Positions 1-14,746 of a stretch of DNA of 64,000 bases are shown piece after piece. The notes under the pieces were generated by a model. The model did no database searches, had not been told where the DNA came from, and saw only the letters and a program-made list of their open reading frames with translations. Every line of letters starts with the position of its first letter. Position 1 is the first letter of the stretch. The stretch comes from Spirochaetia bacterium (GTDB taxonomy: Bacteria > Spirochaetota > Spirochaetia > SZUA-6 > Bin103), in the NCBI GenBank assembly GCA_965208575.1, contig CBDBOV010000004.1:224001-288000 (forward strand), given 5' to 3'. The position numbers were made by a program, and so were the translations under genes.

Positions 1-210
1 TGTCAGCCATGGTCGAAAAGATATCCGGAACTTGGCACACCGTCTACCCCGTGCCAAGCGATCAATCGCGTTGAATATTGTGCGCTCGCCATACCGCCCG
101 GTCAATCGTGTTTCATAGCGGGCGCTCGGGCCGATCGATGAGGAGCCGACCGACTGACTCGGAGCTGCCGGATTGGCCGGGCCGTCCGGAATGCTTGCTC
201 CAGGACGTCG

Positions 211-1299
211 ATGACACCGTTCGCAACGTGCCGCCGGGCCGTCCGAGGCGCCGGGTGGCGTCTGCCGAGCACGCGTTGCCGGGCGGCAGCACACGCGAAC
301 CGTACCGAGTCACGCAGGACGCGGCTGCGGTACACTCTCCACTGCGTGCTCCCCAATCCCGCACAGATCGGCTCGGCGCTGTCGGATCTCATCGGAGGCG
401 GCGCCCGGCGGCGTGACCGGCCCGACTTCCGCCAGGGGTTCTACCTGGCCCTTGCCAAGGTGCTTGCCGCCGCGGCGTGGATCGATGCGCCGATCAATCA
501 GCCCGAGGTGAACGTGATCAAGAGCCTGCTCAACGAGTTGTCGCCGCGTCTCACCAGTCGCGAATTGCAGTCGGTCCAGCGCTACCTCGCCGAGCCGGTG
601 CCGGACGCCCACTGGGATGAGTTGCTGCTTGCATTGAGCGCCTTCACGCGACGCCGCCCGCGGTTGCAGTTCGCGCTGCAGCGGTTGCAGTCGCTGCTGG
701 CGGCCGACGGCGAGCTCAACGCGGCGGAGCAGAGGCTGTTCGCGCAGGCGCGATCGGCGCTTGACTGGCGAGGCAGTCACCCGGATGCCAACGAGCCGGA
801 CCCGACGCAAGCGGCGTCCGCTGCGGCGGACGCCGGCGATGGCCGCGACGACGGCGCGATACGCCTCGGCGACCTTGCCGGCGGCGGCGCTCGCGATGCT
901 GCCCCGCCGTTGGTGGATCGGGTGCGGGAAGCGGCCGCTGCGCGCTTGGGTTACCCGGCGGACGTTCGCGTGCCGCGCCGGCTGGCGGTGTGGTGCGCAG
1001 CCGTAGTGCACGTCACGGTTCACCGCGCCCGTACCGACGGCGAAGACGCGGAGCTGGTAGGTTTCCTGGCCGCGGTCGGCGGCGTCGATGAAGCCACCGC
1101 CGAGACGGTGCTGGAACAGGCCCGCGAGGCGGGGCCGGCCGCCGCGGCGCGCGCGGAACTGGCCGCCGAGCTGCACGCTGTCGCCACCGCGGTCGAGGTC
1201 GCCTCTCTCGCGCAGTTGCTCAACGCGATGGCCGGCGGCGACGCCGCCCTGCGCCGCCTGCAGGAGGTGAGCCGCGGGATGGAGGGCCTCGCCTGGTAA
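211..1299 (+). CDS. TerB-like (tellurite resistance / co-chaperone-like) domain protein; start uncertain, probably downstream of 211
   Basis: ALAKVLAAAAWIDAPINQPE and LLAADGELNAAEQ resemble the TerB helical motif (A-x-x-D-G-x-x-x-x-E). Confidence 0.55.
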   Translation: MTPFATCRRAVRGAGWRLPSTRCRAAAHANRTESRRTRLRYTLHCVLPNPAQIGSALSDLIGGGARRRDRPDFRQGFYLALAKVLAAAAWIDAPINQPEVNVIKSLLNELSPRLTSRELQSVQRYLAEPVPDAHWDELLLALSAFTRRRPRLQFALQRLQSLLAADGELNAAEQRLFAQARSALDWRGSHPDANEPDPTQAASAAADAGDGRDDGAIRLGDLAGGGARDAAPPLVDRVREAAAARLGYPADVRVPRRLAVWCAAVVHVTVHRARTDGEDAELVGFLAAVGGVDEATAETVLEQAREAGPAAAARAELAAELHAVATAVEVASLAQLLNAMAGGDAALRRLQEVSRGMEGLAW

Positions 1300-1311
1300 C
1301 GTCCCGACCGC

Positions 1312-2505
1312 TCATGCCGGGCGCTGCTGGATGGCGCGCAGGATCTCGTAACAGGCGCCGAGCGGGTGATAGTCGGTCTTGCTCGGCGGGCTCTTCCTGT
1401 CGTCGTAGCGGCGCCCGCGGCGGTCCAGCACCCGGTACCACGCGCCGTGGACGTGGTCCACGAAGTGGCTGTCGGCATAGTGCCAGGCGCGGTCGTACCA
1501 GTCCCAGTAACGTGCTTCTCCGGTGCGCACGGCCAGCACCGCCGCGGCGGCGACCGTCTCGGCGAGCACCCAGTAGTAGCGGTCGGTGTCGAGAATCTTC
1601 CCGTCCGGCGCGAACGTGTAGTGCATGCCGCCGTACGCTTCGTCCCAACTGCGCGCCAGCGCGGTGTCGAACAGCCGCACGGCAGCCGGCAACTGCCACG
1701 GCTCGGGCCGATGGCGCTCCAGAATCAGCAGCAGCTTGGCCCACTCCGCGAAGTGTCCGGGCAGATAGCCGTAGGGGCGGAACAGGTTGCGGGGATCGTC
1801 GCGGTTGTATTGCCAGTCGTGTTCCCAGTCGGTGGTGTAGTGCTCCCAGATCAGGCCCTGCGCCGGCGCCGCCAACTCGACGCAGATTCGGTTCGCCAGG
1901 GTGAGCGCCCGGTCCAGGTAGCGCGCTTCGCGGGTGGTCCCGTATGCCGCGAGCAGCGCCTCACACAGGTGCATGTTGGCGTTCTGGCCCCGGTAGGGGT
2001 CCACCGCCCGCCAGTCTTCGGCGGCGATCTCATCCGCGTAGAGGCGCGCGGACGGTTCCCAGAACCGCTGTTCGAGCAGGCCGTAGACTTCGCCGATGAG
2101 CGTGTCCGCGCCGGCCACGCCGACGCGCGCCGCCTGCGCGGCGGCAAGCAGCACGAAGGCGTGGCCGTACGCGTGGCGGGCGCCGTCCTCCACCCCGCCT
2201 GCGCCGAGCACCCAGGCGAAGCCGCCGTCGGCCTGCCGGTGTCCCGACCGCAGGAACGCAACCCCGTGGGCGGCCGCCGACCGGTACGCGTCGTCGTCGA
2301 ACAGTTCGGCGGCGACCGCGTAGTTGAACACGAAGCGGCAGGTGCCCACCAGGTGCTTGGTATCCCGGTCATAGATGGTGCCGTCGTCGGTGAACTGGTT
2401 GATGTAGCCGCCGCGCTCGGTGTCGATGCACGCGGGGTGGTAGAAGTGCATGATCCGCCGAACGTGCTCGCGGAGCACCGCGGGATCGCGGTAGTTCATG
2501 GCCAT
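1312..2505 (-). CDS. AGE-family epimerase/isomerase (N-acylglucosamine 2-epimerase / mannose isomerase-like)
   Basis: Motifs GTCRFVFNY, YGHAFVLLA, RGQNANMHLCEA, PGHFAEWAKL, YYWVLAE, KTDYH. True start MAMNYR lies inside the 1312..3627 ORF. Confidence 0.9.
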   Translation of the reverse strand: MAMNYRDPAVLREHVRRIMHFYHPACIDTERGGYINQFTDDGTIYDRDTKHLVGTCRFVFNYAVAAELFDDDAYRSAAAHGVAFLRSGHRQADGGFAWVLGAGGVEDGARHAYGHAFVLLAAAQAARVGVAGADTLIGEVYGLLEQRFWEPSARLYADEIAAEDWRAVDPYRGQNANMHLCEALLAAYGTTREARYLDRALTLANRICVELAAPAQGLIWEHYTTDWEHDWQYNRDDPRNLFRPYGYLPGHFAEWAKLLLILERHRPEPWQLPAAVRLFDTALARSWDEAYGGMHYTFAPDGKILDTDRYYWVLAETVAAAAVLAVRTGEARYWDWYDRAWHYADSHFVDHVHGAWYRVLDRRGRRYDDRKSPPSKTDYHPLGACYEILRAIQQRPA

Positions 2506-2513
2506 GAGCGCGT

Positions 2514-3560
2514 TCAACCGTTGGGATTGATATGCACCTTGATGGACTGCGAGGACTTGTCGAGGGCGGCGCCGAACGCATCGTGCACCGCATCGAGCGG
2601 GAAGCGCTGGGTGACCAGGGAGCGGGCGGCTTCGGCGTTGTCGGCAACCATTTCCATCGCGATCTGGTAGTCGGCGCGGCCGTTGGTGGCCGAGTAGGTC
2701 ATGGCGCCGACGATCTCCACCTCGTGCTTGGCCAGCAGCAGCGGATTGATGCCGACGGTGGGCACGGTGAATACGCCGAGCAGCAGGAGCCGCCCCTTCG
2801 GCCGTATCGCGAGCTGGGCGGTAAGCAGGGTGTCTCCCCGCCCGCCGACCGTTTCCACCGCCACGTCGATCACGCGCATCCGGGCGAGCTCCTGCAGGCG
2901 CTCGTGCCCGGCCTCGTCGTCGGCAATCACCTCGTCGGCACCGAGGCGCCGGGCCGCTTCCTGCTGGTGCGGGTGGCGGGCGGTGATCAGGGCCGTGGCG
3001 CCGCTCGCCTTGGCGGCGATCAGGGCGGTCAGACCGATCGATCCTGCGCCGATGATCAGCACCGTCTCGCGGGCGCGCAGGCCAATCTTGCCGTAGCCGT
3101 GCACCGAGCACGCGAGCGGCTCGGCAAGCGCGATCACTTCGCCGTCGGCGCCATCCGGGGCACGGTAGGCGGTGCGCGCCGGAACCGTGGCCAGCTCGCT
3201 CATGCCGCCGGCGACCGTCTCTCCCACCAGTCCGCGTTCGGTGCACACGTGGTAGTTGCCGGTCAGGCAGAATGAGCAGGATCCGCAGCTCAGCAACGGT
3301 TCGACACCCACGAGGTCGCCCTCTCGCACGTGGCGGACGCCGGCGCCGACCGCGGTCACCGTACCCGCCACCTCGTGGCCGGGCGTCACTCCCGGGCGCG
3401 GCGTGAACTCGTTGCGGTAGAAGTGCAGGTCGGAGCCGCAGATGCCGGCGCTTGCCACCGCGATCTGCACCTCGCCCGGCCCCGGGTCCGCCACCTCCGA
3501 CTCCCCGATCGCCAGCTTCAGATCGTCCGTCCAGCGTACCGACTTCATCTTGTTCGCCAT
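2514..3560 (-). CDS. Zn-dependent (MDR) sugar/polyol dehydrogenase
   Basis: GICGSDLH, GHE, CGSCSFC...C structural Zn cluster, GAGSIG Rossmann motif; probably co-transcribed with the AGE gene. Confidence 0.9.
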   Translation of the reverse strand: MANKMKSVRWTDDLKLAIGESEVADPGPGEVQIAVASAGICGSDLHFYRNEFTPRPGVTPGHEVAGTVTAVGAGVRHVREGDLVGVEPLLSCGSCSFCLTGNYHVCTERGLVGETVAGGMSELATVPARTAYRAPDGADGEVIALAEPLACSVHGYGKIGLRARETVLIIGAGSIGLTALIAAKASGATALITARHPHQQEAARRLGADEVIADDEAGHERLQELARMRVIDVAVETVGGRGDTLLTAQLAIRPKGRLLLLGVFTVPTVGINPLLLAKHEVEIVGAMTYSATNGRADYQIAMEMVADNAEAARSLVTQRFPLDAVHDAFGAALDKSSQSIKVHINPNG

Positions 3561-3755
3561 TGCGTCCTGCCTCCTCGGTTCGAGTGCGCGGCACGGCGGC
3601 TGCAGGCCGTAGCCGATCGCGGACCACAGTATAGCCGGAAAGCCGCCCGCCTCGCCGGCAGCAATCGCGGTATTTCAGCGGTGGTTGCCACGGGCACTGG
3701 CGTCGGGCTATAGTTCGGGCAACACCTTGCCTACCGCGCGGGAGGTAAAATCGTT

Positions 3756-4772
3756 ATGGCCGAAGCCGATCTTACGGGGCGCTCAGTACGGGGCGAGTGG
3801 CAGCCCGAGTCGCTGCCCAAACCGTCACCGCTGTTCACCAAGCCGCTCAAGTTGCGTCCGATCTTCAACTTCTTTTTCGCACATGACGGGTTGCTGTATC
3901 CCAAGAACGCCATCTATGCCGGCCTCGCCGTGGTCGCCTGGCTGTGGTTCACGCCGAGCTTCGCGCGCACCGAGACGTTCGCGATCGGCTGGATCGCCGA
4001 ACTCTATCTGCGCAACGCGGCGCTGCTGATCCTGGTCGCCGGCGGCCTGCACCTGCGGCTGTACATGAAGCGCGTCCAGGGGCAGCGCTACAAATACAAC
4101 CCGCGCTGGCTTGCCGGCAGCAGCCGCGCGTTCATGTTCGGCAACCAGACCCGCGACAACGTGTTCTGGACGCTCGCGAGCGGCTGCACCATCTGGACGC
4201 TCTACGAGGCGGTCACGCTGTGGTTCTACGCCAACGAGTTCATCTTCTCGGTCAGTTGGGCACGGCATCCGCTGTACTGCGTGCTGATGATGGTGTTCAT
4301 CCTGCTGTTCCGGCAGGCGCACTTCTACTGGACGCACCGCCTCACCCATTGGAAGCCGCTATACAAGTGGGCCCACTACCTGCATCACAAGAACGTAAAC
4401 ATCGGGCCATGGTCGGGGCTTTCGATGCACCCGATAGAGCATGTGCTCTACCTTTCCGGTGTGGTGATCCACTGGATCATCCCCTCGCATCCGCTGCACG
4501 CCATCTTCCACCTGCTGCACGCCGGCATCAGCCCGGCTGCCGGCCACGCCGGGTTCTACAAGTTCGAGCTCGGTGAGAAGCATGCGATCAGCAACGGCGG
4601 CTACTTTCACTACCTGCACCACCGCTACTTCGATTGCAACTACGGCAACGAAGGGGTACCGCTGGACAAGTGGTTCGGCAGCTTTCACGACGGTTCGCCG
4701 GAGGCGCACAAGGCGATGCGCGAGCGCAAGCGCAAGCTCGGCAACCGTGGAGCACCGGTCACCATAAACTGA
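3756..4772 (+). CDS. Sterol desaturase / fatty acid hydroxylase family membrane protein
   Basis: His boxes HRLTH, HYLHH, HYLHH; GLSMHPIEH; NYG; hydrophobic segments. Confidence 0.9.
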   Translation: MAEADLTGRSVRGEWQPESLPKPSPLFTKPLKLRPIFNFFFAHDGLLYPKNAIYAGLAVVAWLWFTPSFARTETFAIGWIAELYLRNAALLILVAGGLHLRLYMKRVQGQRYKYNPRWLAGSSRAFMFGNQTRDNVFWTLASGCTIWTLYEAVTLWFYANEFIFSVSWARHPLYCVLMMVFILLFRQAHFYWTHRLTHWKPLYKWAHYLHHKNVNIGPWSGLSMHPIEHVLYLSGVVIHWIIPSHPLHAIFHLLHAGISPAAGHAGFYKFELGEKHAISNGGYFHYLHHRYFDCNYGNEGVPLDKWFGSFHDGSPEAHKAMRERKRKLGNRGAPVTIN

Positions 4773-4791
4773 CAGCGCGCCGGCGGCCGGC

Positions 4792-5769
4792 TTGTCCGCG
4801 GCGGTGGCTGAACATTCCTTGAACCGCCGTACCGCGGTCGTGACCGGCGCCAATTCCGGCGTCGGGCGTTCGGCCACCGGGTTGCTGCTGGCGGCCGGTG
4901 CTCGCGTCACCTTGGTGTGCCGCGACCGAGGCCGGGGCGAACGCGCACTGGCCGAGTTGCAATCCGATCATCCGTCCGCATCCGCGACGCTCGAGATCGC
5001 CGACCTGGCGGCCATGGGGAGCGTGCGCGCGCTGGCGGCACGCCTCGCCGGCAGGCACGACAGCATCGATATCCTGGTGAACAACGCCGGCGTGTGGCGC
5101 AACCGGCTGGAGTTGACGGCCGAAGGGTTCGAGCGCACGTTCGCCACCAATCACCTGGGCCATTTCCTGCTGACCAACCTGTTGCTTCCGCGGCTGAGCG
5201 GCAGCGGCCACATCGTCAACGTCAGTTCCGAGGCCCACCGCAGCGGCGACCTGCGGCGCGCGGACTTGGACGAGATTGCGCGCGGCCCGGCCTGGCGTGG
5301 CACCTTTCCCGCCTACGCCGACTCGAAGCTGGCCAATGTGCTGTTCACGGTCGAGGCGGCGCGGCGCTGGCGGGAGCACGGCGTGACCGTCAACGCCGTG
5401 CATCCCGGCGTGCTGGCGACCGGCCTCTGGAATCAGAATAGCGGTGTACTTGCGGCCGTCCTGCGCCTCTTCACGTTGTTCATGCGAAGCCCGAGAGTCG
5501 GCGGCAATGCAGTGTTGAATGCGCTGGAATCGGCGCTGCAACATGAGGCTGTACGGTCACTCCGGGACAGGGAAGACGATGATAACCGGTGCCCGAGCAT
5601 CGCCCACCAGCCGGCTATTCCGGAACGGGCCACTGGACGCTACTTTCGGGTAACCCGCGAATCGGCCCCGCAGCCGCAAGCAGCCGACAGGGCGCTGGCA
5701 CATGAACTCTGGGAGCGTAGTCTCACGTGGACCGAAAGCACGGCAGTATGCACCGATTCGGGGTGCTGA
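4792..5769 (+). CDS. SDR-family oxidoreductase (retinol-dehydrogenase-like)
   Basis: TGANSGVG, NNAG, NHLGHFLL, VSS, YADSK, HPG. Confidence 0.9.
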   Translation: MSAAVAEHSLNRRTAVVTGANSGVGRSATGLLLAAGARVTLVCRDRGRGERALAELQSDHPSASATLEIADLAAMGSVRALAARLAGRHDSIDILVNNAGVWRNRLELTAEGFERTFATNHLGHFLLTNLLLPRLSGSGHIVNVSSEAHRSGDLRRADLDEIARGPAWRGTFPAYADSKLANVLFTVEAARRWREHGVTVNAVHPGVLATGLWNQNSGVLAAVLRLFTLFMRSPRVGGNAVLNALESALQHEAVRSLRDREDDDNRCPSIAHQPAIPERATGRYFRVTRESAPQPQAADRALAHELWERSLTWTESTAVCTDSGC

Positions 5770-5818
5770 TATTTTCGTAATATTTTTTTGTTGACCATCC
5801 GATCAGCTAGTAACGATA

Positions 5819-6364
5819 TTGCGCGTCACATTAGCCACGCCCGCCGATGCAAGCGTTATCGCGTGTGTGCAAGTGGTTACGTGGCGCACCACCTACGGGG
5901 GGATCGCACCGGATGTACGCCTGGCCACCCTCTCCTACCGTCACCGCGAGTCCGCGTGGCGGAAAATCATTGCCGAATAGCGCTCCGAGGAACTTCAGTT
6001 CGTTGCCGAGACGGACGCCGGCGAAGCGGTCGACTTCGCCAGCGGCGGCCGTGAACTCGGGGGCGACCTCGAGTACGACGGCGAATTCCACGAGATCCAT
6101 TTCCTTACCCCGCAGCAGCGGCTTGGCGTCGGACGGCGGCTTGTCGCGGCCGTAGTCGAACGCCTGATCGACGCCTCGTTCGGCTCCATGTCGATCCGGG
6201 TATTGCAGGACAATCCATCGTGCCGCTTGTGCGCGGCGATCGGCGGTTCGCGGACGCGCAACCGCATTACTACGATTGGCGGTGCCGATTTCGCGGAGGT
6301 CGCCTACGGCTGGCATGACCTCGCACTCCCGAGGAGGAATCGGCACCGAAGGGAGGGGGTATGA
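5819..6364 (+). pseudogene. GNAT acetyltransferase pseudogene with in-frame TAG at 5978-5980
   Basis: Manual translation from TTG 5819: LRVTLATPADASVIACVQVVTWRTTYGGI...WRKIIAE*RSEELQFVAETDAGEAVDFASGG...QQRLGVGRRLV...DNPSCR...EVAYGWHDL; not in the ORF track. Confidence 0.8.
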
Positions 6365-7302
6365 CTCCGAAAGTTGCTGTCCTTGGCGCCGGAGCCATGG
6401 GATGTCTGTTCGGCGGAGAGCTCGCCGAGCACGGCCTCGACGTCACGCTGATAGACGTGTGGCGCGAGCATGTCGATGCGATCAACCGCGACGGGTTGCG
6501 CATCGTGGGCCATCGCGGCAATCGCCGGGTCCGCGTGCGGGCGACTACCGATCCCGCATCGTGCGGAGCGGTGGACGTGGTGCTGGTGCACTGCAAGGCG
6601 GCGTGCACCGTGGCCGCGGTGAGCACCGCGCGCGACGCCGGATTGTTTCGCAACGGTACGGTCGCGATCAGTTTCCAGAACGGCCTCGGCAACGAAGAGA
6701 CGATCGCCGAGGTGATCGGTTCGCGGCGGGTGCTCGGCGGCGTGACCGCGCAGGGAGCGAGCGTCGAGGGGCCGGGCTGCATCCGCAGCTACGCCGACCT
6801 GCCGAGCCAGATCGGCGAGATGGGCGGCGGTGTCAGCGACCGCGCCACCGCGATTGCGGCCGCGTTCAGCGAACACGGTCTGCAGACCGTAGCGAGCGCC
6901 GACATCCGCCATGACATGTGGAAAAAGCTGATGGTGAACGTCAGCGTGAGTGCGATGTCGGGTATCACCAACCTGACCATCAGCGAGGCGGTGGCGACTC
7001 CCGAACTGAAGGCGATGTGCTACGGCGCGGTGGCGGAGGCGGTGCCGGTGGCCTGTGCCGACGGCGTCGCCCTCACGCACGAGGAGAGCCGCAAGACGCT
7101 CGACCTGATTGTCGGTCCGGGCGGTACCGGAGCCAACAAGTCGAGCCTGTGCGTCGACATCCTGAACCGGCGGCCCACCGAGGTGGACGTGATCAATGGC
7201 GCCGTGGTGTCGCATGGCGTTCGGCACGGCATCGACACGCCGATCAACGCCACCCTGGTAGCGCTGGTCAAGGGCATCGAGTCGCGTTACCTCGCCGGTT
7301 AG
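6361..7302 (+). CDS. Ketopantoate reductase (PanE/ApbA) family 2-keto-acid reductase
   Basis: GAGAMG, HCKA, FQNG, WKKL..N, SS..D....R.TE.D.ING. Confidence 0.9.
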   Translation: MTPKVAVLGAGAMGCLFGGELAEHGLDVTLIDVWREHVDAINRDGLRIVGHRGNRRVRVRATTDPASCGAVDVVLVHCKAACTVAAVSTARDAGLFRNGTVAISFQNGLGNEETIAEVIGSRRVLGGVTAQGASVEGPGCIRSYADLPSQIGEMGGGVSDRATAIAAAFSEHGLQTVASADIRHDMWKKLMVNVSVSAMSGITNLTISEAVATPELKAMCYGAVAEAVPVACADGVALTHEESRKTLDLIVGPGGTGANKSSLCVDILNRRPTEVDVINGAVVSHGVRHGIDTPINATLVALVKGIESRYLAG

Positions 7303-7321
7303 AGCGGAGTGAGACCGAACC

Positions 7322-8314
7322 ATGGTGCTTGCCCCTCAACCCTGCGTGGATACCAGCGGCGCGCGGCTGAGTGCTCCGCCCCTGGAAGCGTTGCGTGAAG
7401 CGCTCGCCCGCGGTCTGCAGGCCAACTACCGCGATGTTCGCGTGCGGGTGGTGCCCTGCCCCGACCTGCGCCGTGTCGGCTGTTCGTGGGCCGGCCTGGG
7501 GGGCTCGCCGGGCATTGTCGACGTCGGCGGCGAGCCGTACGCCCACAACCCGCGTTACCGCGACGTCCGGTTCGCGGTGCCGGACGTGCTGCGCTGCACC
7601 GGCCTCGCCGGCACCGGGGTGCTCGGCGCCGGCATGGCGTGCCCGGCCCACATCGATGGCCACTGCGGCGAGGTGATCGCCAACCTCGACGTGGGCGTCC
7701 GCGACCGGTCGCGGGTGGCACGGGTGGACGAAGGGGGACGCTGCGTGGTGGAGCCGTACGGCGCCGGCGTGTTTGCCGGGCTTGCCAACCTGTACGTGTG
7801 TGACGGCGCCCCGGGGCCGGTCCTGGAAGTGGAGGTCGGCCACCGCATCGGCGCGGAGGGGTCCCTGCCGCAGGCGATGCGGTCGGCCCTGGCGCCGCTG
7901 GCGGCGACCGGGCTGGGGCCAATCGCCCTCGGCGGCGTGTTCGAGCTGGTGGCCGGGCAGATCCGCAGCCACGTCATGCCTGACTACGACTGCATCGACA
8001 TGCCCTACTACGACGCGGAGCGCGACGAGGTGGTCGGGGATTTCCTGCGCTTCTTCGAACCGGTCGGCCCCGATCTGGTGTGCTTCTCGGTGCTGTGGAC
8101 CGGCGACCCGACGGGAGGGGCGCTGGATCTGCGCCCGTCGGGCGAACACACGCACTTTTACCACCCGCGCGATCCCGGCCTCGGCGGCCACTACCACCAC
8201 GACGTGACGCCGGACGCCGTGCACTACCGCGGCTGGTTTGCGCCGGCGGAAGCGGTCTACCGGGTGGGCAACATCTACGCGCGGCTGCGCAGCATGGAAG
8301 ACCGCGTCGCCTGA
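7322..8314 (+). CDS. DUF1907 / C11orf54 (PTD012)-like Zn-binding protein
   Basis: Full-length resemblance to human C11orf54: PPLEAL..GL..NY..V.V.VVPCPDL, VGG.PY, LGAG, LANL, GGVF, SHVMP, EHTHF, GGHYH.D.TPD.V.Y.G.F.PAE..YR. Confidence 0.85.
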   Translation: MVLAPQPCVDTSGARLSAPPLEALREALARGLQANYRDVRVRVVPCPDLRRVGCSWAGLGGSPGIVDVGGEPYAHNPRYRDVRFAVPDVLRCTGLAGTGVLGAGMACPAHIDGHCGEVIANLDVGVRDRSRVARVDEGGRCVVEPYGAGVFAGLANLYVCDGAPGPVLEVEVGHRIGAEGSLPQAMRSALAPLAATGLGPIALGGVFELVAGQIRSHVMPDYDCIDMPYYDAERDEVVGDFLRFFEPVGPDLVCFSVLWTGDPTGGALDLRPSGEHTHFYHPRDPGLGGHYHHDVTPDAVHYRGWFAPAEAVYRVGNIYARLRSMEDRVA

Positions 8315-8534
8315 CGAGCATGACGTCCCGGCGTTGGTGGCCGTTCCGCGGCTTGCCGGCCGCCGGCGTCGCGGCGGGTCTGCGCCTCCGGAACTCGCCA
8401 ACTGCTCGTGACCCCGGGCGTCGACTTGCCAGCTCGCGGCGTCACGATGTGGCGCCGTGCCTACCGACCGGCGCGCCTCGTAACGGCAGCGACCGGCACG
8501 GTACGGCCGAGTGCAGCCGCGGTCGTGGTCGCGG

Positions 8535-9221
8535 TCACGGGGTGACCTCGCCTGCTGACCAGAAGTGGGTGATGACGGCGTAGCGCGGGGTGCCGGTGGC
8601 GTTGCCGCCGGCGTAGTGCAGCGTGCGGCAGTGGTGGAAGGTGGCGTCGCCCGGCTGCAGGGTGACGGCCACCGCCTTGCCGGCGTCGGCGGTGGTGGCC
8701 AGGGCGCCGTTGATCTCCGACCGGTCGGCGATGGAGACGTGCTCCCGGATCGGGCCGCGGTGGCTGCCCGGAATGAACTGCATGCCGCCGTTGGCCTTCC
8801 ACGCCGGGGTCAGCGCCAGCCAGCAGGTCACGGCGCGGCCCGAGCCGTTGCGGTCCTGCCAGTAGCCGGCATCCTGGTGCCAGTCGGTCTGTGCCGGATA
8901 GTGCGCCGGCTTCATGATGAGCTGATCGTACTGGTACGCCGCGTCCGGCCCGATCAACCGCCTGGCCGCCGCCAGCGCGCGCCGGAAGTAGGCGTGCCCG
9001 CGCCAGTGCGCCATGTGCTGCGACGGATTGGCAAACTGCACCATCGCCCCCTTGACCCGCCGGTCGCCAAACGCCGGCACCTCGATCTCACCGCGCAGCG
9101 CCCGGTCGTAGTCGGCCAGCAGCTCCCCCACCTGCCCTTCCTCGATCAGTCCGCGCAGCACGACGAATCCGTCCCGCCAGAACGCCGCGACTTGTGTCCC
9201 TTGTAGCGTTGCTGTACTCAC
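8535..9221 (-). CDS. Phytanoyl-CoA dioxygenase (PhyH) family Fe(II)/2OG oxygenase
   Basis: FWRDGF, WHQD, W.AL, NGG..FIPGSH, FHH..T.H...N....R. Confidence 0.9.
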   Translation of the reverse strand: MSTATLQGTQVAAFWRDGFVVLRGLIEEGQVGELLADYDRALRGEIEVPAFGDRRVKGAMVQFANPSQHMAHWRGHAYFRRALAAARRLIGPDAAYQYDQLIMKPAHYPAQTDWHQDAGYWQDRNGSGRAVTCWLALTPAWKANGGMQFIPGSHRGPIREHVSIADRSEINGALATTADAGKAVAVTLQPGDATFHHCRTLHYAGGNATGTPRYAVITHFWSAGEVTP

Positions 9222-9307
9222 GGCGCCCCAGCATCCGCTACTCGACCAGACCGAAACTCGCCGCCACGGATTGCATGATTGGCGTCAGGCCTGAGATAAC
9301 GCAATAC

Positions 9308-9937
9308 TCAGTCGTCCAGGTCGCGATGGGAGACGGAGTCCTCGTCTACCCAGTCCTCCTCTTCCCACGTCGTTCCTTGGCGGCCCGGGACTTTGCGGGT
9401 GGGACCGGCCTTGTAGATTCGACAGGAGAGCGGTCCGTAGCAGAAGGTCTCCTCACGATAACGCTTGTGGGCGGGGTTCCAGTGGTCGACGATGATTTCC
9501 ACCGGCATCCGGCACCCCCAGATGCAACTCGTGCACGACGCCGAGTAGGTCCGTGCGGCGAGGCGTCGGCAGCCGCGCTCGCGGTACGCCTCAAGGTCCG
9601 GTGGCACTCCATGCCACGGCGGCGGCGCACCGGCTCGGTCCGCGCGGTGCAAGACCTTGAGCTTGGAGATTCGGTACAGTTCGGCGGTCTCCCTGCGCGC
9701 ATCGGGAACGGGTACGCCCATCCCGCTCAACGTGTTGCCGACCTCGATGCGATGCCTGGCGTGCGCCGCCTCACCAATGGCGATGGCGAACATGCGCGGT
9801 TCCTCGTCGACCGAGCCGGCGAGCCGGAGCACGTAACCCAAGTAGGTGTGGCTGCGTTGGTCGAACGACCGCAGCAACCGGATCCGCGGCTGAATCGACA
9901 CCACCACGCCGGACCACATGAGCGCCATGGGCGTCAC
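9308..9937 (-). CDS. Cys-rich hypothetical protein (possible Zn-binding); start GTG 9937 or ATG 9928
   Basis: Protein-like composition: QPRIRLLRSFDQRSHTYLGY, CTSCIWGC, CYGPLSC, acidic C-terminus. Confidence 0.65.
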   Translation of the reverse strand: MTPMALMWSGVVVSIQPRIRLLRSFDQRSHTYLGYVLRLAGSVDEEPRMFAIAIGEAAHARHRIEVGNTLSGMGVPVPDARRETAELYRISKLKVLHRADRAGAPPPWHGVPPDLEAYRERGCRRLAARTYSASCTSCIWGCRMPVEIIVDHWNPAHKRYREETFCYGPLSCRIYKAGPTRKVPGRQGTTWEEEDWVDEDSVSHRDLDD

Positions 9938-10285: not shown

Positions 10286-10448
10286 AGCAGCTGGCGTGGC
10301 GCTGGCTCAGGCGTCGAGGCCGTAGGGGTCGTCGTAGATCTCCTGCCACATGCGTCCGCCGGTTGCCAAGCCGGCATCGTGGCCTTGTGAGCGTCGGGGC
10401 GGCGCAGGTAGGATACGGCGTGCGGTGCGGGCGGCACCGCCGGCCACC

Positions 10449-13260
10449 ATGACCAAGGCAGGAAAGAGAGGAAAATCGAGGCGCAAGCGGCGGCCGCGAG
10501 ACGGACCGCCGCCGACGGTCGGGTGGATCTCGACCGACGAGGACGAGATCACGCGCCGGCAGTGGCGCGGGCGCACCGAGATCGACCGGGTACTTCCCGT
10601 CGACGCAAATCACCACCCGTTCGGCGATTACCGGGTCACCTCGTCGAGCGGCCGCAGCTACGTCGTCGAGATCCGCTCCCTGAGCGAACGCATCAACTCG
10701 TGCGAGTGTCATGATTACCGCACCAACCGGCTGGGCAGTTGCAAGCACGTGGAGGGCGTGCTGCATCGGATCCGGAACGACCGTGCGCTGCGTGTCCGGG
10801 CCGGAGCTGCCAGCCGCCGCATCGAGATTTTCCTCGATGAGGGCGCCGGACGTGCGGTGCGTGTGACCACCCCTGCCGAGCCTGCTGGCGCCGAGCCTGA
10901 TCTCATGGAGGAGGTGCAGCGACTGTGCGTCAACCTGCGCCGCGGCTCGCAGCGTGCGCTGCGCACGCTGCACCGGTTGGCGGACTTGCATCCTGATCAC
11001 CTGCGGGTTTCGCGCTTGCTGGAGGGCTGGACCGCCGCACGCCGGGCGGTGCGGCGCCGGCGGCGCGAGTACGACCGCTTCCGGGCCAGTCTGACTGCCG
11101 ACGGGGCGCGGGAGCTGCTCAAGCAGCCGCTGCTGCCCTACCAGGTCGACGGCGTGCTGCACCTGGTGTTTCGGGAGCGCGCGCTGCTGGCCGACGACAT
11201 GGGCCTCGGCAAGACCGTGCAGGCGATTGCCGCGTGCGCCCTGCTGCGCAAGCTGCGCGGCATCGAGCGCGTGCTGGTGGTGTCACCCGCGTCGCTCAAG
11301 GCGGAGTGGGAAGAACAGATCGACCGCTTCTCGGCGTTGCCGGCGCGCGTGGTAACGGGCAACCGGCTAGTGCGGCGCGCGGCGTACCGCAGCCGAACCT
11401 TCTTCACGCTGTGCAACTACGAGCAGATTCTGGCCGACGGCGACGACCTGCTCGACCTCCTGCAGCCGGAGGTGGTGATCCTGGACGAAGCGCAGCGCAT
11501 CAAGAACTGGCAGACCAAGACCGCGAGTGCGGTCAAGCGGTTGCACAGCCGCTATGCGTTCGTCCTCACCGGCACGCCGCTGGAGAATCGCATTGACGAG
11601 CTCTACTCCATCGTTCAGTTTCTCGACCCCGACGTGCTCGGCCCGCTGTTTCGCTTCAACCGGGAGTTCTACGAGCTGGATGACAAGGGCCACCCGACCG
11701 GCTACCCGCAACCTCGAACGGCTTGCCGACCGCGTCGCCCCGGTAATGCTGCGACGCCGCAAGGAGGAGGTGGAGCACGAACTCCCGAGCCGGATGACGA
11801 AGACGTTCTTCGTCCCCATGACCGATACCCAGCTCGACGTGTACGAGGACTACGAGTACTGGGCACGGCGTCTCGCCGCGATTGCGCAGCGCCGCCCGCT
11901 CACCAAGGAGGAGTACGAGCGCCTGCAAATGTTCCTGGCCTGCATGCGCATGGTGTGCGACACGCCCACCATTCTCGACGGCGAACGTCACGAGTGTCCC
12001 AAGCTCGACGAGATCGAACGCCTGCTGCCCGAACTGCTGAGCGACCCGCAACGCAAGATCCTGATCTTCTCCGAGTGGGTGCGGATGCTGGAACTGGTGC
12101 GCGAGTGCGCCGTCGCCGCCGGCGTCGAATTCGCCTGGCACACCGGGTCCGTGTCGCAGGTACGGCGCCGGGCCGAGATACACCGCTTTCGCGAGGACCC
12201 CGAGTGCCGGCTGTTCCTCTCTTCCGAGTCGGGGGGCGTAGGACTCAACCTGCAGGCCGCCGACACGGTGATCAACCTGGACCAGCCGTGGAATCCGGCG
12301 CGATTGGAGCAGCGCATCGCGCGCGCCTGGCGCAAGCATCAGACGCGTCCGGTCACGGTGATCAACCTGGTGAGCGAGAAGACCATCGAGCATCGCATGC
12401 TCGGGCTGCTGGACGCCAAGCGGGCTCTCGCGGACGGCGTGATCGACCGGCGCGGCGATCTGTCCGCGATCCGCATGCCCACCAGCCGCGCAGCGTTCAT
12501 GGAGCGTCTGAACGCCGTGCTCGATACGGATGGCGAGCGGGACGCCGTTGCGACCGCCGAGCCTCAGCCGCGCACCGAGACCGAGCGACTGCGCGACGAC
12601 CTGGTGGCCCGGTATGGTTCGGCGTTGCAGCGCATCCTGGTCGGCGAGGATGCAGATCAGTCCGAAGATCGGGGGGCGATGCTGGTGGTGCTGGACCTGC
12701 CCGCGGCAGGCGCGGCGGAGGAAGAGCGCCGCCTCGCCGAGGCCACCGGCATGCGCGTTACGGTGATCGACGCGGCCAGCCACGAGGCGATGCAGCGCCT
12801 CGCCCGGAACGGGTTGATCACCATGCCCGGCGAGCGGTTGCGGGAGATACATCCGACTCCTGGCGCAGAACAGGAGCGAGCCGCGGCGCGGGCGGCTCGG
12901 GCGCGCACCCTGGTTGACCAGGCAGTGCACAAGCTCAAGGCTGCGGCACTGCTGGAGGGAGGCGGCTTCGCGGAGGAGGCGCAGGCGCCGGCGCTGGAGG
13001 GTGCGCGCCTTGCGGTCGGCGCGCTGGCTGCGGGACGCGGCGAGCCGGAGCCGGACGACGCCGACGGGGCCGCGGCATTCCTGCTGGGTAACGGGCCGGA
13101 AGAGATACCCGACGGTCTGCCGCATGAAGCGATCCGCATCCTGTCGGGAGAGCGGGCCGACGACGGCATCGTTACCCCGGTGCGAGGGTTGGTAGAACGC
13201 ATTTCCGGGATCGTCGAAGACCTGCCCTGCTCCACGCTTGCGAGCGGCGAGGAGCGGTAA
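10449..13260 (+). CDS. SWIM Zn-finger + SNF2/SWI2 helicase with degenerate MNT-like and HEPN-like C-terminal region; +1 frameshift at ~11705-11707
   Basis: SWIM CECHDY..CKH; motif I ADDMGLGKT; DEAQ; LTGTPLEN in ORF 10350.. Continues in ORF 11527..13260 (LRRRK, IFSEW, GGVGLNLQ, WNPARLEQRIAR). GGC TAC CCG C has one extra C relative to GY-RNL. Confidence 0.85.
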
Positions 13261-13263
13261 GCG

Positions 13264-14746
13264 TCACTCCCTCTGTCGCCGGCCCGCGGACTTGTGCCAC
13301 CGCCCGCGTAGCGTGTGCAACTCCTCCTGGAATCGTTTTTCATCCGGGAGCAGGGCGATAGCCCGTTGATAGGACTGCTCGACCTCGTGAACTGGTGCTC
13401 GCAGACGGTTCAGCGTGCGCCCGAGATCGCGCCTCGCCCAGCCGTGGCGGGACTTCGGCGCTTCGAGCTGAAGCACACGTTCCAGGAGCGCGCGCGCCTC
13501 ACCGAGCAGCCGCCGACTTGCGCCAGGTGCGTCCCTCGTCGAAGTCGAAACGCGGGACCGGTGATCCGTTGTCCTCCATGGCTTGAAAGATCCTCGGGAG
13601 CCCGGTGAGGCGCTGCTCGGCGAGCCGCAACTCCCTGAGGAAATCGCCGATGCGGCGATTGCGCGGTGGTACGAGCGGAATGTTCGCGTCTGGTTCCAGA
13701 TGACTCAACTCTATTCCCGCGACCGGCCCGGGATAGCTGACGATCTCGATCCGATCAGGGTACAGATACACCTTGGTGGGTTCCACGTCACTTTCCTGAT
13801 AGCCGCGGTGGTACAGGGCGTTTACCAGCGTCTCGCGTAGCGCGCGTTGCGGATAGTTTACCCAGCGCCGCACCTGGATGCGGTCGTGTTCCTTCTTCAG
13901 ATGGGCTTCCGCCAGATTCTCCAGGTAGTCGAGACAGGCCCGCAGCTGGGTAACGAGCGAGCCCTTGAACATGCGTTCTTCCTGGACTTCGCCGGCGCGG
14001 TCGGCGGCGAATTGCACCACTTCGATCCAGGCGCCGCGAAACCAGCGCTGCGGCGCATCCGAAAAGAACAGCAGGCCTACATTGCGCGGAACGCCGTGTC
14101 CATTCACCGGCACCGTGAGCCGCATGCGCCGGTAGATTTCCAGCGCGTCCGGCTGATCGATAAGACCGCTGCGCACGTCGCGCAGGTACTCCCGCACCAA
14201 CTCGGCGCGCAGATCCTCGACCCGTGCCTGCAGCGCTCTGCGGTCGTCCCATGGCACCCGCGCCGTGGTCTCGAGCAGCGCCTGCAGCATGCCGTTCGCC
14301 TGAGCATCGACGGTCTCGGCACCAAGCCGAATCCAGAACCGGCGCTCCTCCCCACGCCCTTCCGGCGCCGCGTGAGGTCTCGTATCGCTCGGTGGCACCC
14401 ACACGACGAGGATGTGACGGTCGTCCACAATCTCCGGGGACACTACCGGCTGGTAGACGGGATCGATTCTGTTGCAATTGCCGCGTATCCACTTCTGGGC
14501 AGCGGCGAGCTGGTCCGGCGTGAGACCCGCCGGGGGCAATGCTGCCCGGCCATCTGCTTCCTTCACGCCGAGCACTACGTAACCGCCGTTGAGGCTCTGC
14601 AAGTCGTTGGCGAATGCGCAGATCGTCTTCAGAACCTGCGGTCCCGTGGTCTTGGGATCCCATCCGGCCTTGAACTCGACGCGAACGGACTCCACCACGC
14701 GACAGTGGAGCAGGTCATCGAGATTGATGGGCAGCGTGCGGCTCAC
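13264..14746 (-). pseudogene. AlbA_2/Schlafen + HATPase_c_4 (RecG-C-like) protein with out-of-frame TPR-like C-terminal remnant (internal deletion)
   Basis: VESVRVEFK, CAFAND, GGY.VLGV, LRETLVNALYHRGY, PRNRRIGDFL. The ORF stops right after FDFDEGRT; another frame gives RRLLGEARALLERVLQLE...YQRAIALLPDE to 13264. Confidence 0.7.

Follow-up and report, generated by a model that had tools for sequence, protein, structure and literature searches.

A 64,000-nucleotide stretch of a Spirochaetia bacterium genome (GenBank assembly GCA_965208575.1, contig CBDBOV010000004.1, positions 224,001 to 288,000 of the forward strand; hereafter the window) contains two co-directional genes, coding for an oxidoreductase of the PanE/ApbA (ketopantoate reductase) family and for a DUF1907 protein related to human C11orf54. 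These proteins are designated P0001 and P0002, and the genome from which the window was taken G000. The reading that we favor, with a probability of about 0.6, is that they form a two-enzyme module, in which an NAD-type oxidoreductase would feed a Zn-dependent beta-keto-acid decarboxylase.

P0002 is the sole DUF1907 copy in this 6.5-Mb genome. It matches the Pfam profile PF08925 (DUF1907) over positions 1–285 of 285 (192.6 bits for a cut-off of 25, E 1.3e-56), and its residues 17–316 match residues 10–305 of the human PTD012/C11orf54 chain 1XCR (E 1.5e-37), a relationship that reaches E 1.1e-100 when a profile built from 28 sequences is compared with the Protein Data Bank (PDB). The likeness of the 330-aa protein to C11orf54 along its length had been noticed in a first-pass annotation of the window made from its letters, and stands, as does the His-rich Zn-site motif quoted there (LRPSGEHTHFYHPRDPGLGGHYHHD). 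According to the passages of Malatesta et al. (2025, PMC12337341) drawn on here, the DUF1907 domain of C11orf54 converts beta-keto-L-gulonate into L-xylulose using a Zn held by H266, H268 and H278, and the mutations H217N and R263Q abolish activity; the link between C11orf54 and beta-keto-gulonate decarboxylation, mentioned in the first-pass annotation, is therefore correct. In a pairwise comparison with 1XCR, residues H217, R271, H276, H278 and H290 of P0002 align with human H217, R263, H266, H268 and H278, and all five are invariant across both branches of the family in an alignment of 28 sequences (A1). P0002 thus retains the three Zn histidines (H276, H278, H290) together with the essential substrate-binding pair (H217 and R271), and is probably a working member of the DUF1907 family, belonging to a separate, bacterial-type branch.

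The same source describes the C11orf54 fold as superimposable on that of acetolactate decarboxylase (ALDC), including the three-His Zn site, with an analogous 2-hydroxy-3-oxo-acid chemistry, whereas ALDC has Arg and Glu at the positions of His217 and Arg263 (PMC12337341). A four-layer, ALDC-like fold is predicted for P0002 from its match to 1XCR; at the sequence level no ALDC family match was obtained, Pfam returning PF08925 only, and the 28-sequence profile retrieving no ALDC chain from the PDB at E up to 10.

The upstream partner, P0001, matches PF02558 (E 2.1e-35) and PF08546 (E 1.2e-31), and exceeds the cut-off of the apbA_panE subfamily model TIGR00745 (229.6 for 141.35 bits). Lys189, Glu274, Ser261/262, Asn107 and Asp266 are invariant in 16 orthologues (alignment A4). 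We take the first two to be equivalent to the catalytic pair K176/E256 of E. coli PanE, and Asn107 and Ser261/262 to be the residues that hold the 2-oxo-acid in that enzyme. An equally invariant Asp32 closes the second Rossmann strand, VTL(I/V)D (VTLID in P0001), and an acidic residue at this position usually denotes a preference for NAD rather than NADP. These features suggest that P0001 is an NAD-linked enzyme acting on a 2-hydroxy/2-oxo carboxylate.

The DUF1907 gene starts 19 nt after the PanE-family gene, as first noted (open reading frames 6361–7302 and 7322–8314). The spacer carries a GGAG motif 12 nt upstream of the P0002 ATG, has no repeat elsewhere in the genome, and is too short for a promoter or a terminator. 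A promoter and terminator scan of 3500–9500 gave counts no different from the range of shuffled sequence, and a search of 5700–6420 against Rfam gave no match.

Linkage of the two genes across phyla

Relatives of the DUF1907 gene were collected by scanning a single genome from each prokaryote species for motifs; 357 of 360 pattern-matching stretches were confirmed, and the best 80 of the 357 were used as genome loci. A PanE orthologue, 42–58% identical to P0001, adjoins DUF1907 in 40 of these 80 loci, being upstream of and co-directional with it in 13, downstream in 7, and divergent in 20, all of the latter belonging to SAR11. A distant paralogue (26%) in L056 and a fragment in L019 were left out of this count. 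The linked loci span Spirochaetota, SAR11, Rhodobacterales, several gammaproteobacterial orders and one Caldilineaceae. The linkage was also approached from the side of the partner, through metagenome loci found by PanE-type motifs taken from an alignment of four fusion proteins (best 80 of 470; the scan with the fusion P0131 as sole query gave no match). DUF1907 is present in 46 of these 80 PanE-anchored loci, and just 14 of the remaining 34 have at least 1.2 kb on both flanks.

The two domains also occur within single proteins. A fusion of DUF1907 followed by ApbA was found in 4 of 13 long representatives scanned (P0130, P0131, P0133 and P0165). The PanE portion of P0131 aligns with P0001 throughout its length at 42% identity (E 2e-74), and a cluster search with P0131 returned generic PanE clusters only. 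At the DNA level, positions 51–3074 of metagenome contig L099 (3183 nt) form a single open frame of 1007 aa, in which DUF1907 is followed by two complete ApbA/ApbA_C units, and which hints at a second redox step; the L099 record itself resembles one gene with short flanks. L100 is likewise fused, with a frame broken further on. P0272 (588 aa), listed as DUF1907 plus ApbA, was rejected as a true fusion: it results from the gene caller reading through two frameshifts in the PanE-DUF1907 pair of a close relative.

Precedent for such an arrangement exists in animals, and P0144, another of the 13 long representatives, is a DUF1907-3HCDH fusion of the rotifer type. Rotifers fuse DUF1907 to the upstream L-gulonate 3-dehydrogenase, as PMC12337341 reports in the part considered here; these CRYL1-like fusions (see also PMC12435205) join a decarboxylase to an NAD-dependent dehydrogenase, which has been read as consecutive steps, and the bacterial-type ones would do likewise. 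Unlike the rotifer proteins, the bacterial-type fusions (P0130, P0131, P0133, P0165 and L099) carry PanE/ApbA, placed C-terminal to DUF1907, and the PanE fusions fall within the bacterial-type clade. The partners of human C11orf54 and of P0002 differ in the same way, being 3HCDH-type (CRYL1) and PanE-type respectively, although both would tie the decarboxylase functionally to a dehydrogenase of the 6PGDH-C-like superfamily. Two further proteins, P0124 (645 aa) and P0153 (912 aa), have DUF1907 fused behind a common domain of about 300 aa (41% identical between them, with an H-x-D...H pattern). A PhyH identity tried for this domain found no support (18.8 bits for a cut-off of 22; BLASTP against the window PhyH, E 1.0; hhalign probability 2.4%).

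Within the genus of G000, the PanE orthologue (78–98% identity) occurs in exactly the 5 of 10 other members that have DUF1907, and neither gene was found in the remaining five, which are 81–95% complete. Since these genomes are kin and the genes adjacent, this co-occurrence represents one block gained or lost rather than ten independent trials. Adjacency in three gene orders across phyla, the fusions, and the co-presence and co-absence in the genus support the conclusion that the pairing is not due to chance and that the genes are functionally coupled as a module, as first proposed. A complex prediction of PanE (A4) with DUF1907 (A1) had a score of 0.00 with no answer returned, and carries no inference.

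Could P0001 instead be a plain ketopantoate reductase serving pantothenate synthesis, placed beside DUF1907 with no functional meaning? This explanation is hard to credit. P0001 resembles E. coli PanE (EC 1.1.1.169) and D-2-hydroxyacid dehydrogenases in having both Pfam domains, a score above the TIGR00745 cut-off and the presumed catalytic Lys and Glu; all its solved relatives are annotated as 2-dehydropantoate 2-reductase (nearest E ~1e-33), and in SAR11 DUF1907 has a PanB-like gene at a distance of about 1 kb. However, P0001 reaches none of the 2-dehydropantoate 2-reductase equivalog models (171 for 252 bits on the best, NF005091, and 160.9 for 500 on NF005092), it matches the E. coli PanE structures at merely E ~1e-11 to 1e-12 and would differ from that enzyme by the Asp at the NAD(P)-discriminating position, and the SAR11 PanB-like protein scores far under the panB cut-off (90 for 207 bits). 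G000 has a second ApbA-family paralogue on another contig, and the distribution of P0001 follows DUF1907 and not the pantothenate genes: it was not found in the genus members without DUF1907, a pattern hardly expected of a housekeeping gene, and the adjacency of the pair outlasts three rearrangements and extends to fusion.

Genomic block, distribution and transfer

In the genus, the pair lies in a block with the order FA_hydroxylase, short-chain dehydrogenase (SDR), in some cases a GNAT gene, PanE and DUF1907, and with a convergent PhyH gene that stands beside DUF1907 in all genus loci (Table 1).

Table 1. Features of the block in the window (positions counted from the first nucleotide of the window)
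Feature	Position	Strand	Basis or remark
FA_hydroxylase-family membrane di-iron oxygenase, 338 aa	3756..4772	+	First gene of the co-directional block
Short-chain dehydrogenase (SDR), 325 aa	4792..5769	+	Pfam and model matches, genus comparison
GNAT acetyltransferase pseudogene	5822..6364	+	Between SDR and PanE; comparison with G001 and G006
PanE/ApbA-family oxidoreductase P0001, 313 aa	6361..7302	+	Pfam, TIGR00745, orthologue alignment, dN/dS
Intergenic spacer, 19 nt	7303..7321	+	Direct sequence reading; GGAG ribosome-binding motif
Putative DUF1907/C11orf54-type Zn-dependent decarboxylase, bacterial branch, P0002, 330 aa	7322..8314	+	Pfam, 1XCR match, alignments, dN/dS
PhyH-family Fe(II)/2-oxoglutarate dioxygenase, 228 aa	8535..9221	-	Convergent with DUF1907

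The FA_hydroxylase gene is far more conserved than the pair (97–99% identity in G006 and G007, dN/dS 0.05). SDR lies directly upstream of PanE in G003 and G004, at gaps of 29–62 nt, the gaps along SDR-PanE-DUF1907 being 13–62 nt in these two genomes, and it was not found at the G001 locus. In the window, an apparent gap of 590 nt before PanE corresponds to the GNAT pseudogene, whose counterpart is intact in G001 (L012:5380-5907; Acetyltransf_1, 53 bits) and has three stops and a frameshift in G006. A frame on the opposite strand (5831-6346(-), 171 aa) was rejected in favor of this plus-strand pseudogene, since it matches no family and is frameshifted in G006. Within the SDR gene, contigs of the DNA sequencing runs X1, X6 and X5 (the last with another left edge) skip 89 bases at 5539–5629 and carry 8 or 31 other letters instead, a difference that reflects strain variation or decay of this gene.

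Elsewhere in the window, a frame of 771 aa at 1312-3627(-) has a C-terminal half resembling GlcNAc 2-epimerases and mannose isomerases (it scores 231 bits on the model for D-mannose isomerase, for which the cut-off is 600); no family match covers the first ~385 residues of the frame, which may represent an over-called start or a separate N-terminal domain. A SNF2-family helicase (855 aa, +) followed by a Schlafen AlbA_2/HATPase_c_4 protein (415 aa, -) at 10350–14746 may form a pair acting in defence or DNA processing, with no relation to the module.

Beyond the genus, an exhaustive search of 1.84 billion representatives for DUF1907 yielded 488 clusters with E no higher than 1e-3, and the 357 prokaryote species records are mostly marine or sponge-associated. 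DUF1907 had been described at first as mainly eukaryotic; its bacterial branch is indeed small but, on this sampling, real. The best 80 loci comprise 3 Spirochaetia metagenome-assembled genomes (MAGs), 31 Caldilineaceae, 1 Anaerolineales, 24 Pelagibacteraceae (SAR11) and 21 gamma- and alphaproteobacteria (including Rariloculaceae, Woeseiaceae, Arenicella and Paracoccaceae), and many of the carrier isolate names resemble sponge-MAG series. Closer to G000, one of 13 sister-genus genomes has a stop-containing fragment, and no DUF1907 was found in any of 17 genomes from other families of the same order. Sequencing runs labelled 'sponge metagenome', from several studies, contain 0.2–0.4 of the sampled words of the stretch, and in two such DNA runs (X5 and X6) contigs at 90–99% likeness span all 30 bins of window positions 3700–9300.

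A quick maximum-likelihood tree of 92 rows (LG+G4, SH-aLRT support only, unrooted, eukaryotic rows not named) unites all named bacterial rows, three PanE fusions, P0124, P0135 and P0099 as a 41-row clade (support 99), with the animal-type rows on the opposite side. The two groups also differ in the spacing of the active-site motif: R-x3-EHTH is shared by the window, the fusion proteins and all 35 of the named bacterial rows, P0002 having a two-residue insert (S-G) between R271 and EHTH, and R-x-EHTH is the spacing in 24 other rows, several of which terminate in SKL or GRD, corresponding to a peroxisomal signal or the animal-type terminus. The motifs GGEPYAHNP and GHCGE likewise mark the bacterial sequences in alignment A1. 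In the tree, the window groups with two Spirochaetia and then (support 100) with three Chloroflexota and three Proteobacteria rows lacking PanE (two Gammaproteobacteria and one Immundisolibacterales), and L048, the sole PanE-bearing Caldilineaceae among the best 80 loci, nests in a gammaproteobacterial PanE-linked group (support 100). These placements indicate that the gene has crossed between bacterial phyla, in some cases along with its partner. The bacterial-type clade includes free-living SAR11 and has its own insert, absent from the animal-type rows, so that a recent transfer from host to symbiont, which the first-pass annotation had envisaged, finds no support in these comparisons.

Gene contexts in other lineages vary. 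In gammaproteobacteria, genes for a TRAP DctPQM transporter lie immediately upstream of the pair in 10–11 of the 80 loci, in some of them with a TonB-dependent receptor or RpiR-type regulator gene ahead of the transporter. Inositol genes beside the pair exceed their model cut-offs (IolB 371 for 205 bits, IolG 390–404 for 355, IolD 932 for 715, IolC/J 772 for 600), and a phytase gene also occurs beside these gammaproteobacterial loci; iol-type genes are present in 27 of the 80, with no spirochaetal or Caldilineaceae locus among the 27. In SAR11 loci, PhyH, a 2OG-Fe(II) oxygenase and PanE share one strand, and on the other side lie DUF1907, the PanB-like protein, an HpcH-type aldolase, an aldehyde dehydrogenase and IolD (803 for 715 bits). 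In Caldilineaceae (L025, L027-L034, L037-L044 and others), DUF1907 stands between an ADP-ribosylglycohydrolase and an enolase-superfamily gene resembling acid-sugar dehydratases, with an ANKH-like membrane protein or transporter on the opposite strand, and seems to have another partner than PanE. Distant PhyH or 2OG-oxygenase genes occur near the pair in SAR11 and one Caldilineaceae; as the PhyH genes of different phyla are 22–27% identical, they were not counted as one conserved partner. The TRAP and iol genes of these lineages point to the uptake of an acid and to the breakdown of polyols or sugar acids. Taken together, the theme shared by these contexts is the catabolism of hydroxylated carboxylic acids, and the inositol link is real in Proteobacteria, yet no property of the module itself.

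A working module or a decaying cassette

Several observations weigh against the interpretation of the pair as a working two-enzyme module, and some of them point to specific alternatives. The first set concerns decay within the genus, from which one might conclude that the block in G000 is an inactive relic in the course of being lost. The GNAT pseudogene lies inside the block, with one in-frame TAG after '...RKIIAE' and a TGA stop overlapping the PanE ATG, G007 has a decayed SDR, and frameshifts interrupt PanE and PhyH in G003. In G001, PanE lacks residues 21–94 and DUF1907 its first 121 residues, and a 578-aa frame with a DDE transposase domain (L012:6842-8578) lies between them, the module there having evidently been destroyed by an insertion element. 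The close-relative pair read through as P0272 is doubly frameshifted, and half of the other genus members examined have no pair. In the window, by contrast, both frames are full length with every conserved residue, and dN/dS values against G006, G007 and G004 are 0.07–0.17 for PanE and 0.17–0.24 for DUF1907: both genes are under purifying selection. RNA-library contigs, from a run with the label sponge metagenome, cover parts of PanE (6439–6746 and 6875–7210) and DUF1907 (7317–7532 and 8174–8316) at 90–95% likeness, which represents a relative's sequence in the library and is not proof of transcription; they give no cover over 5757–6317, from which nothing is inferred. The block is a cassette that moves between phyla and decays within the genus, and a relic in G000 itself is very unlikely.

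A second set of objections concerns the chemistry of P0002. The S-G insert directly follows the essential Arg at the rim of the active site, an insert of about 5 residues (YYDxE) follows H217, and GHCGE distinguishes the bacterial branch from the characterised human enzyme. The conserved C-terminal Asp of metazoan orthologues is not present either, the P0002 tail reading ...MEDRVA and bacterial-type tails being varied; in the human enzyme, the carboxylate of this Asp contacts a Zn histidine, and extending it lowers activity but does not abolish it (PMC12337341, in part). Because of these differences, the substrate of the bacterial branch may not be that of the human enzyme. Might the reaction itself then be another one, such as the weak esterase activity first reported for PTD012, or that of some other Zn-dependent lyase or hydrolase? 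The inserts adjoin both essential residues, the neighbours of the pair in the window are oxygenases and an SDR rather than sugar genes, and the family has long been annotated as ester hydrolase (PMC12435205, in the portion relied on). We nevertheless consider a different chemistry quite unlikely: the five catalytic and metal residues are invariant in both branches, a partner dehydrogenase fits the need of a decarboxylase for an unstable keto acid, and the esterase activity of the human enzyme is weak and now regarded as a side activity in the account of PMC12337341. P0002 shares with C11orf54 (EC 4.1.1.34) its family over the full length, the Zn triad and both essential residues, and differs from it in its separate clade (SH-aLRT 99), its inserts and its C-terminus.

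Finally, the partnership is not general. PanE is missing from the other 40 of the 80 genome loci (30 Caldilineaceae, L018, L020-L023, L069 and four SAR11), including 30 of 31 Caldilineaceae, and therefore is not obligatory for DUF1907; the conservation of a panE-like neighbour, suggested at the outset, holds for one half of the genome loci and for the 46 metagenome loci, and fails in the other half. Nor does the setting in G000 point to sugars. The window's block contains no transporter or sugar genes and no iol genes beside the pair, its members other than the pair being FA_hydroxylase, SDR, the GNAT pseudogene and PhyH, and the bacterial sugar-acid pathway proposed early on is plausible without being reflected in these neighbours. 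An IolD above the equivalog cut-off (798 bits) lies about 1 Mb away (C4:1294772-1296652), and IolB was not found in G000 with TIGR04378, so that an inositol pathway may be incomplete or variant there. MIOX gave no match in G000, the control genomes being equally silent. G000 also has 7 full-length FGGY-kinase matches, none above the XylB cut-off, and 5 Ldh_2 (YiaK-family) genes. Stereochemistry adds a last difficulty: PanE-family enzymes normally yield D-2-hydroxy acids, and C2 of 3-dehydro-L-gulonate has the L configuration.

Reaction order, substrate and significance

How could two such enzymes cooperate? The order of steps, the cofactor and the substrate given here are those that we infer from the observed families, catalytic residues, selection and genomic coupling. 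The PanE-type enzyme would take a carboxylic acid from the sponge or from seawater and convert it into an unstable 2-hydroxy-3-oxo acid, either by reducing at C2 a 2,3-diketo acid, for example 2,3-diketo-L-gulonate (a reaction carried out in E. coli by YiaK, which is not homologous), or by oxidizing a dihydroxy acid or, as animal CRYL1 does, an aldonic acid. P0002 would bind the product on Zn by its carboxylate, keto and hydroxyl groups, in the manner described for C11orf54 and ALDC, and release CO2 and a ketol, which would be a ketose if the substrate were a sugar acid. Adjacency or fusion of the two genes makes sense in this scheme, because beta-keto acids are unstable.

The reverse order, with decarboxylation coming first and the resulting ketone then being reduced by the PanE-like enzyme, would be analogous to acetoin reductase after acetolactate decarboxylase or to L-xylulose reductase after C11orf54. 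Adjacency and fusion are silent on the order of steps, and the two PanE units per DUF1907 in L099 would suit one step before and one after. We regard this order as unlikely, since the invariance of Lys189, Glu274, Ser261/262 and Asn107 in the 16 orthologues, which presumably hold the carboxylate and the 2-oxo group as in E. coli PanE, argues for an acid substrate and thus for action before the loss of CO2. The rotifer precedent, moreover, fuses the upstream dehydrogenase (PMC12337341, as cited above).

With the dehydrogenase acting first, the E. coli yiaK-S/ula route offers a parallel, in that a TRAP transporter and a reductase making 3-keto-L-gulonate are combined with a decarboxylase giving the L-xylulose skeleton, and TRAP genes occur in the gammaproteobacterial loci. 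The enzymes are non-homologous, however, the ula route phosphorylates before SgbH/UlaD whereas the proposed route would not, and the window's block has no TRAP genes. The YiaMNO TRAP system of E. coli imports 2,3-diketo-L-gulonate, as stated in the passage of PMC7660916 relied on. The TRAP large subunit found beside the pair scores 229 bits on the YiaN model for a cut-off of 800, so that the same cargo is not indicated, and the TRAP binding proteins at L024 and L061 have their best solved relatives at E ~1e-33, none of them an obvious ligand-defined orthologue. The leading candidate for the substrate, with a probability well below even, is a sugar acid resembling 3-dehydro-L-gulonate. Somewhat more doubtful still is a widespread marine, non-phosphorylative pathway shared by SAR11, sponge symbionts and the carriers of the fusions, which might lead from acids of ascorbate or uronate origin (2,3-diketo-L-gulonate or L-gulonate) to L-xylulose, or from an inositol-derived deoxy-acid to a deoxy-ketose.

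Only in 2025 was the function of C11orf54 established, and for animals alone. A full-text literature search under the family names found, among the matches listed, no paper on a bacterial DUF1907 member or its PanE partner; bacterial homologues are mentioned merely as 'also found in some bacteria' in the part of PMC12435205 consulted, and one 2013 metagenome survey merely names DUF1907 in a list. The data define a distinct bacterial-type branch with a signature insert and a steady partner from another family than the animal one, and add the case of a spirochaete and sponge symbiont, a linkage test anchored on PanE, a tri-domain fusion seen at the DNA level, and the picture of a cassette mobile between phyla. 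The natural fusions would be good expression targets. As the carriers include SAR11 and many sponge symbionts, knowledge of the substrate would add a step to the turnover of marine dissolved organic carbon and to sponge-symbiont metabolism, and would show the same decarboxylase chemistry wired to different dehydrogenases in animals and bacteria. The marine L-xylulose or deoxy-ketose pathway, if true, would be a carbon route new for the most abundant ocean bacteria, and the first bacterial counterpart of the animal glucuronate-xylulose pathway.

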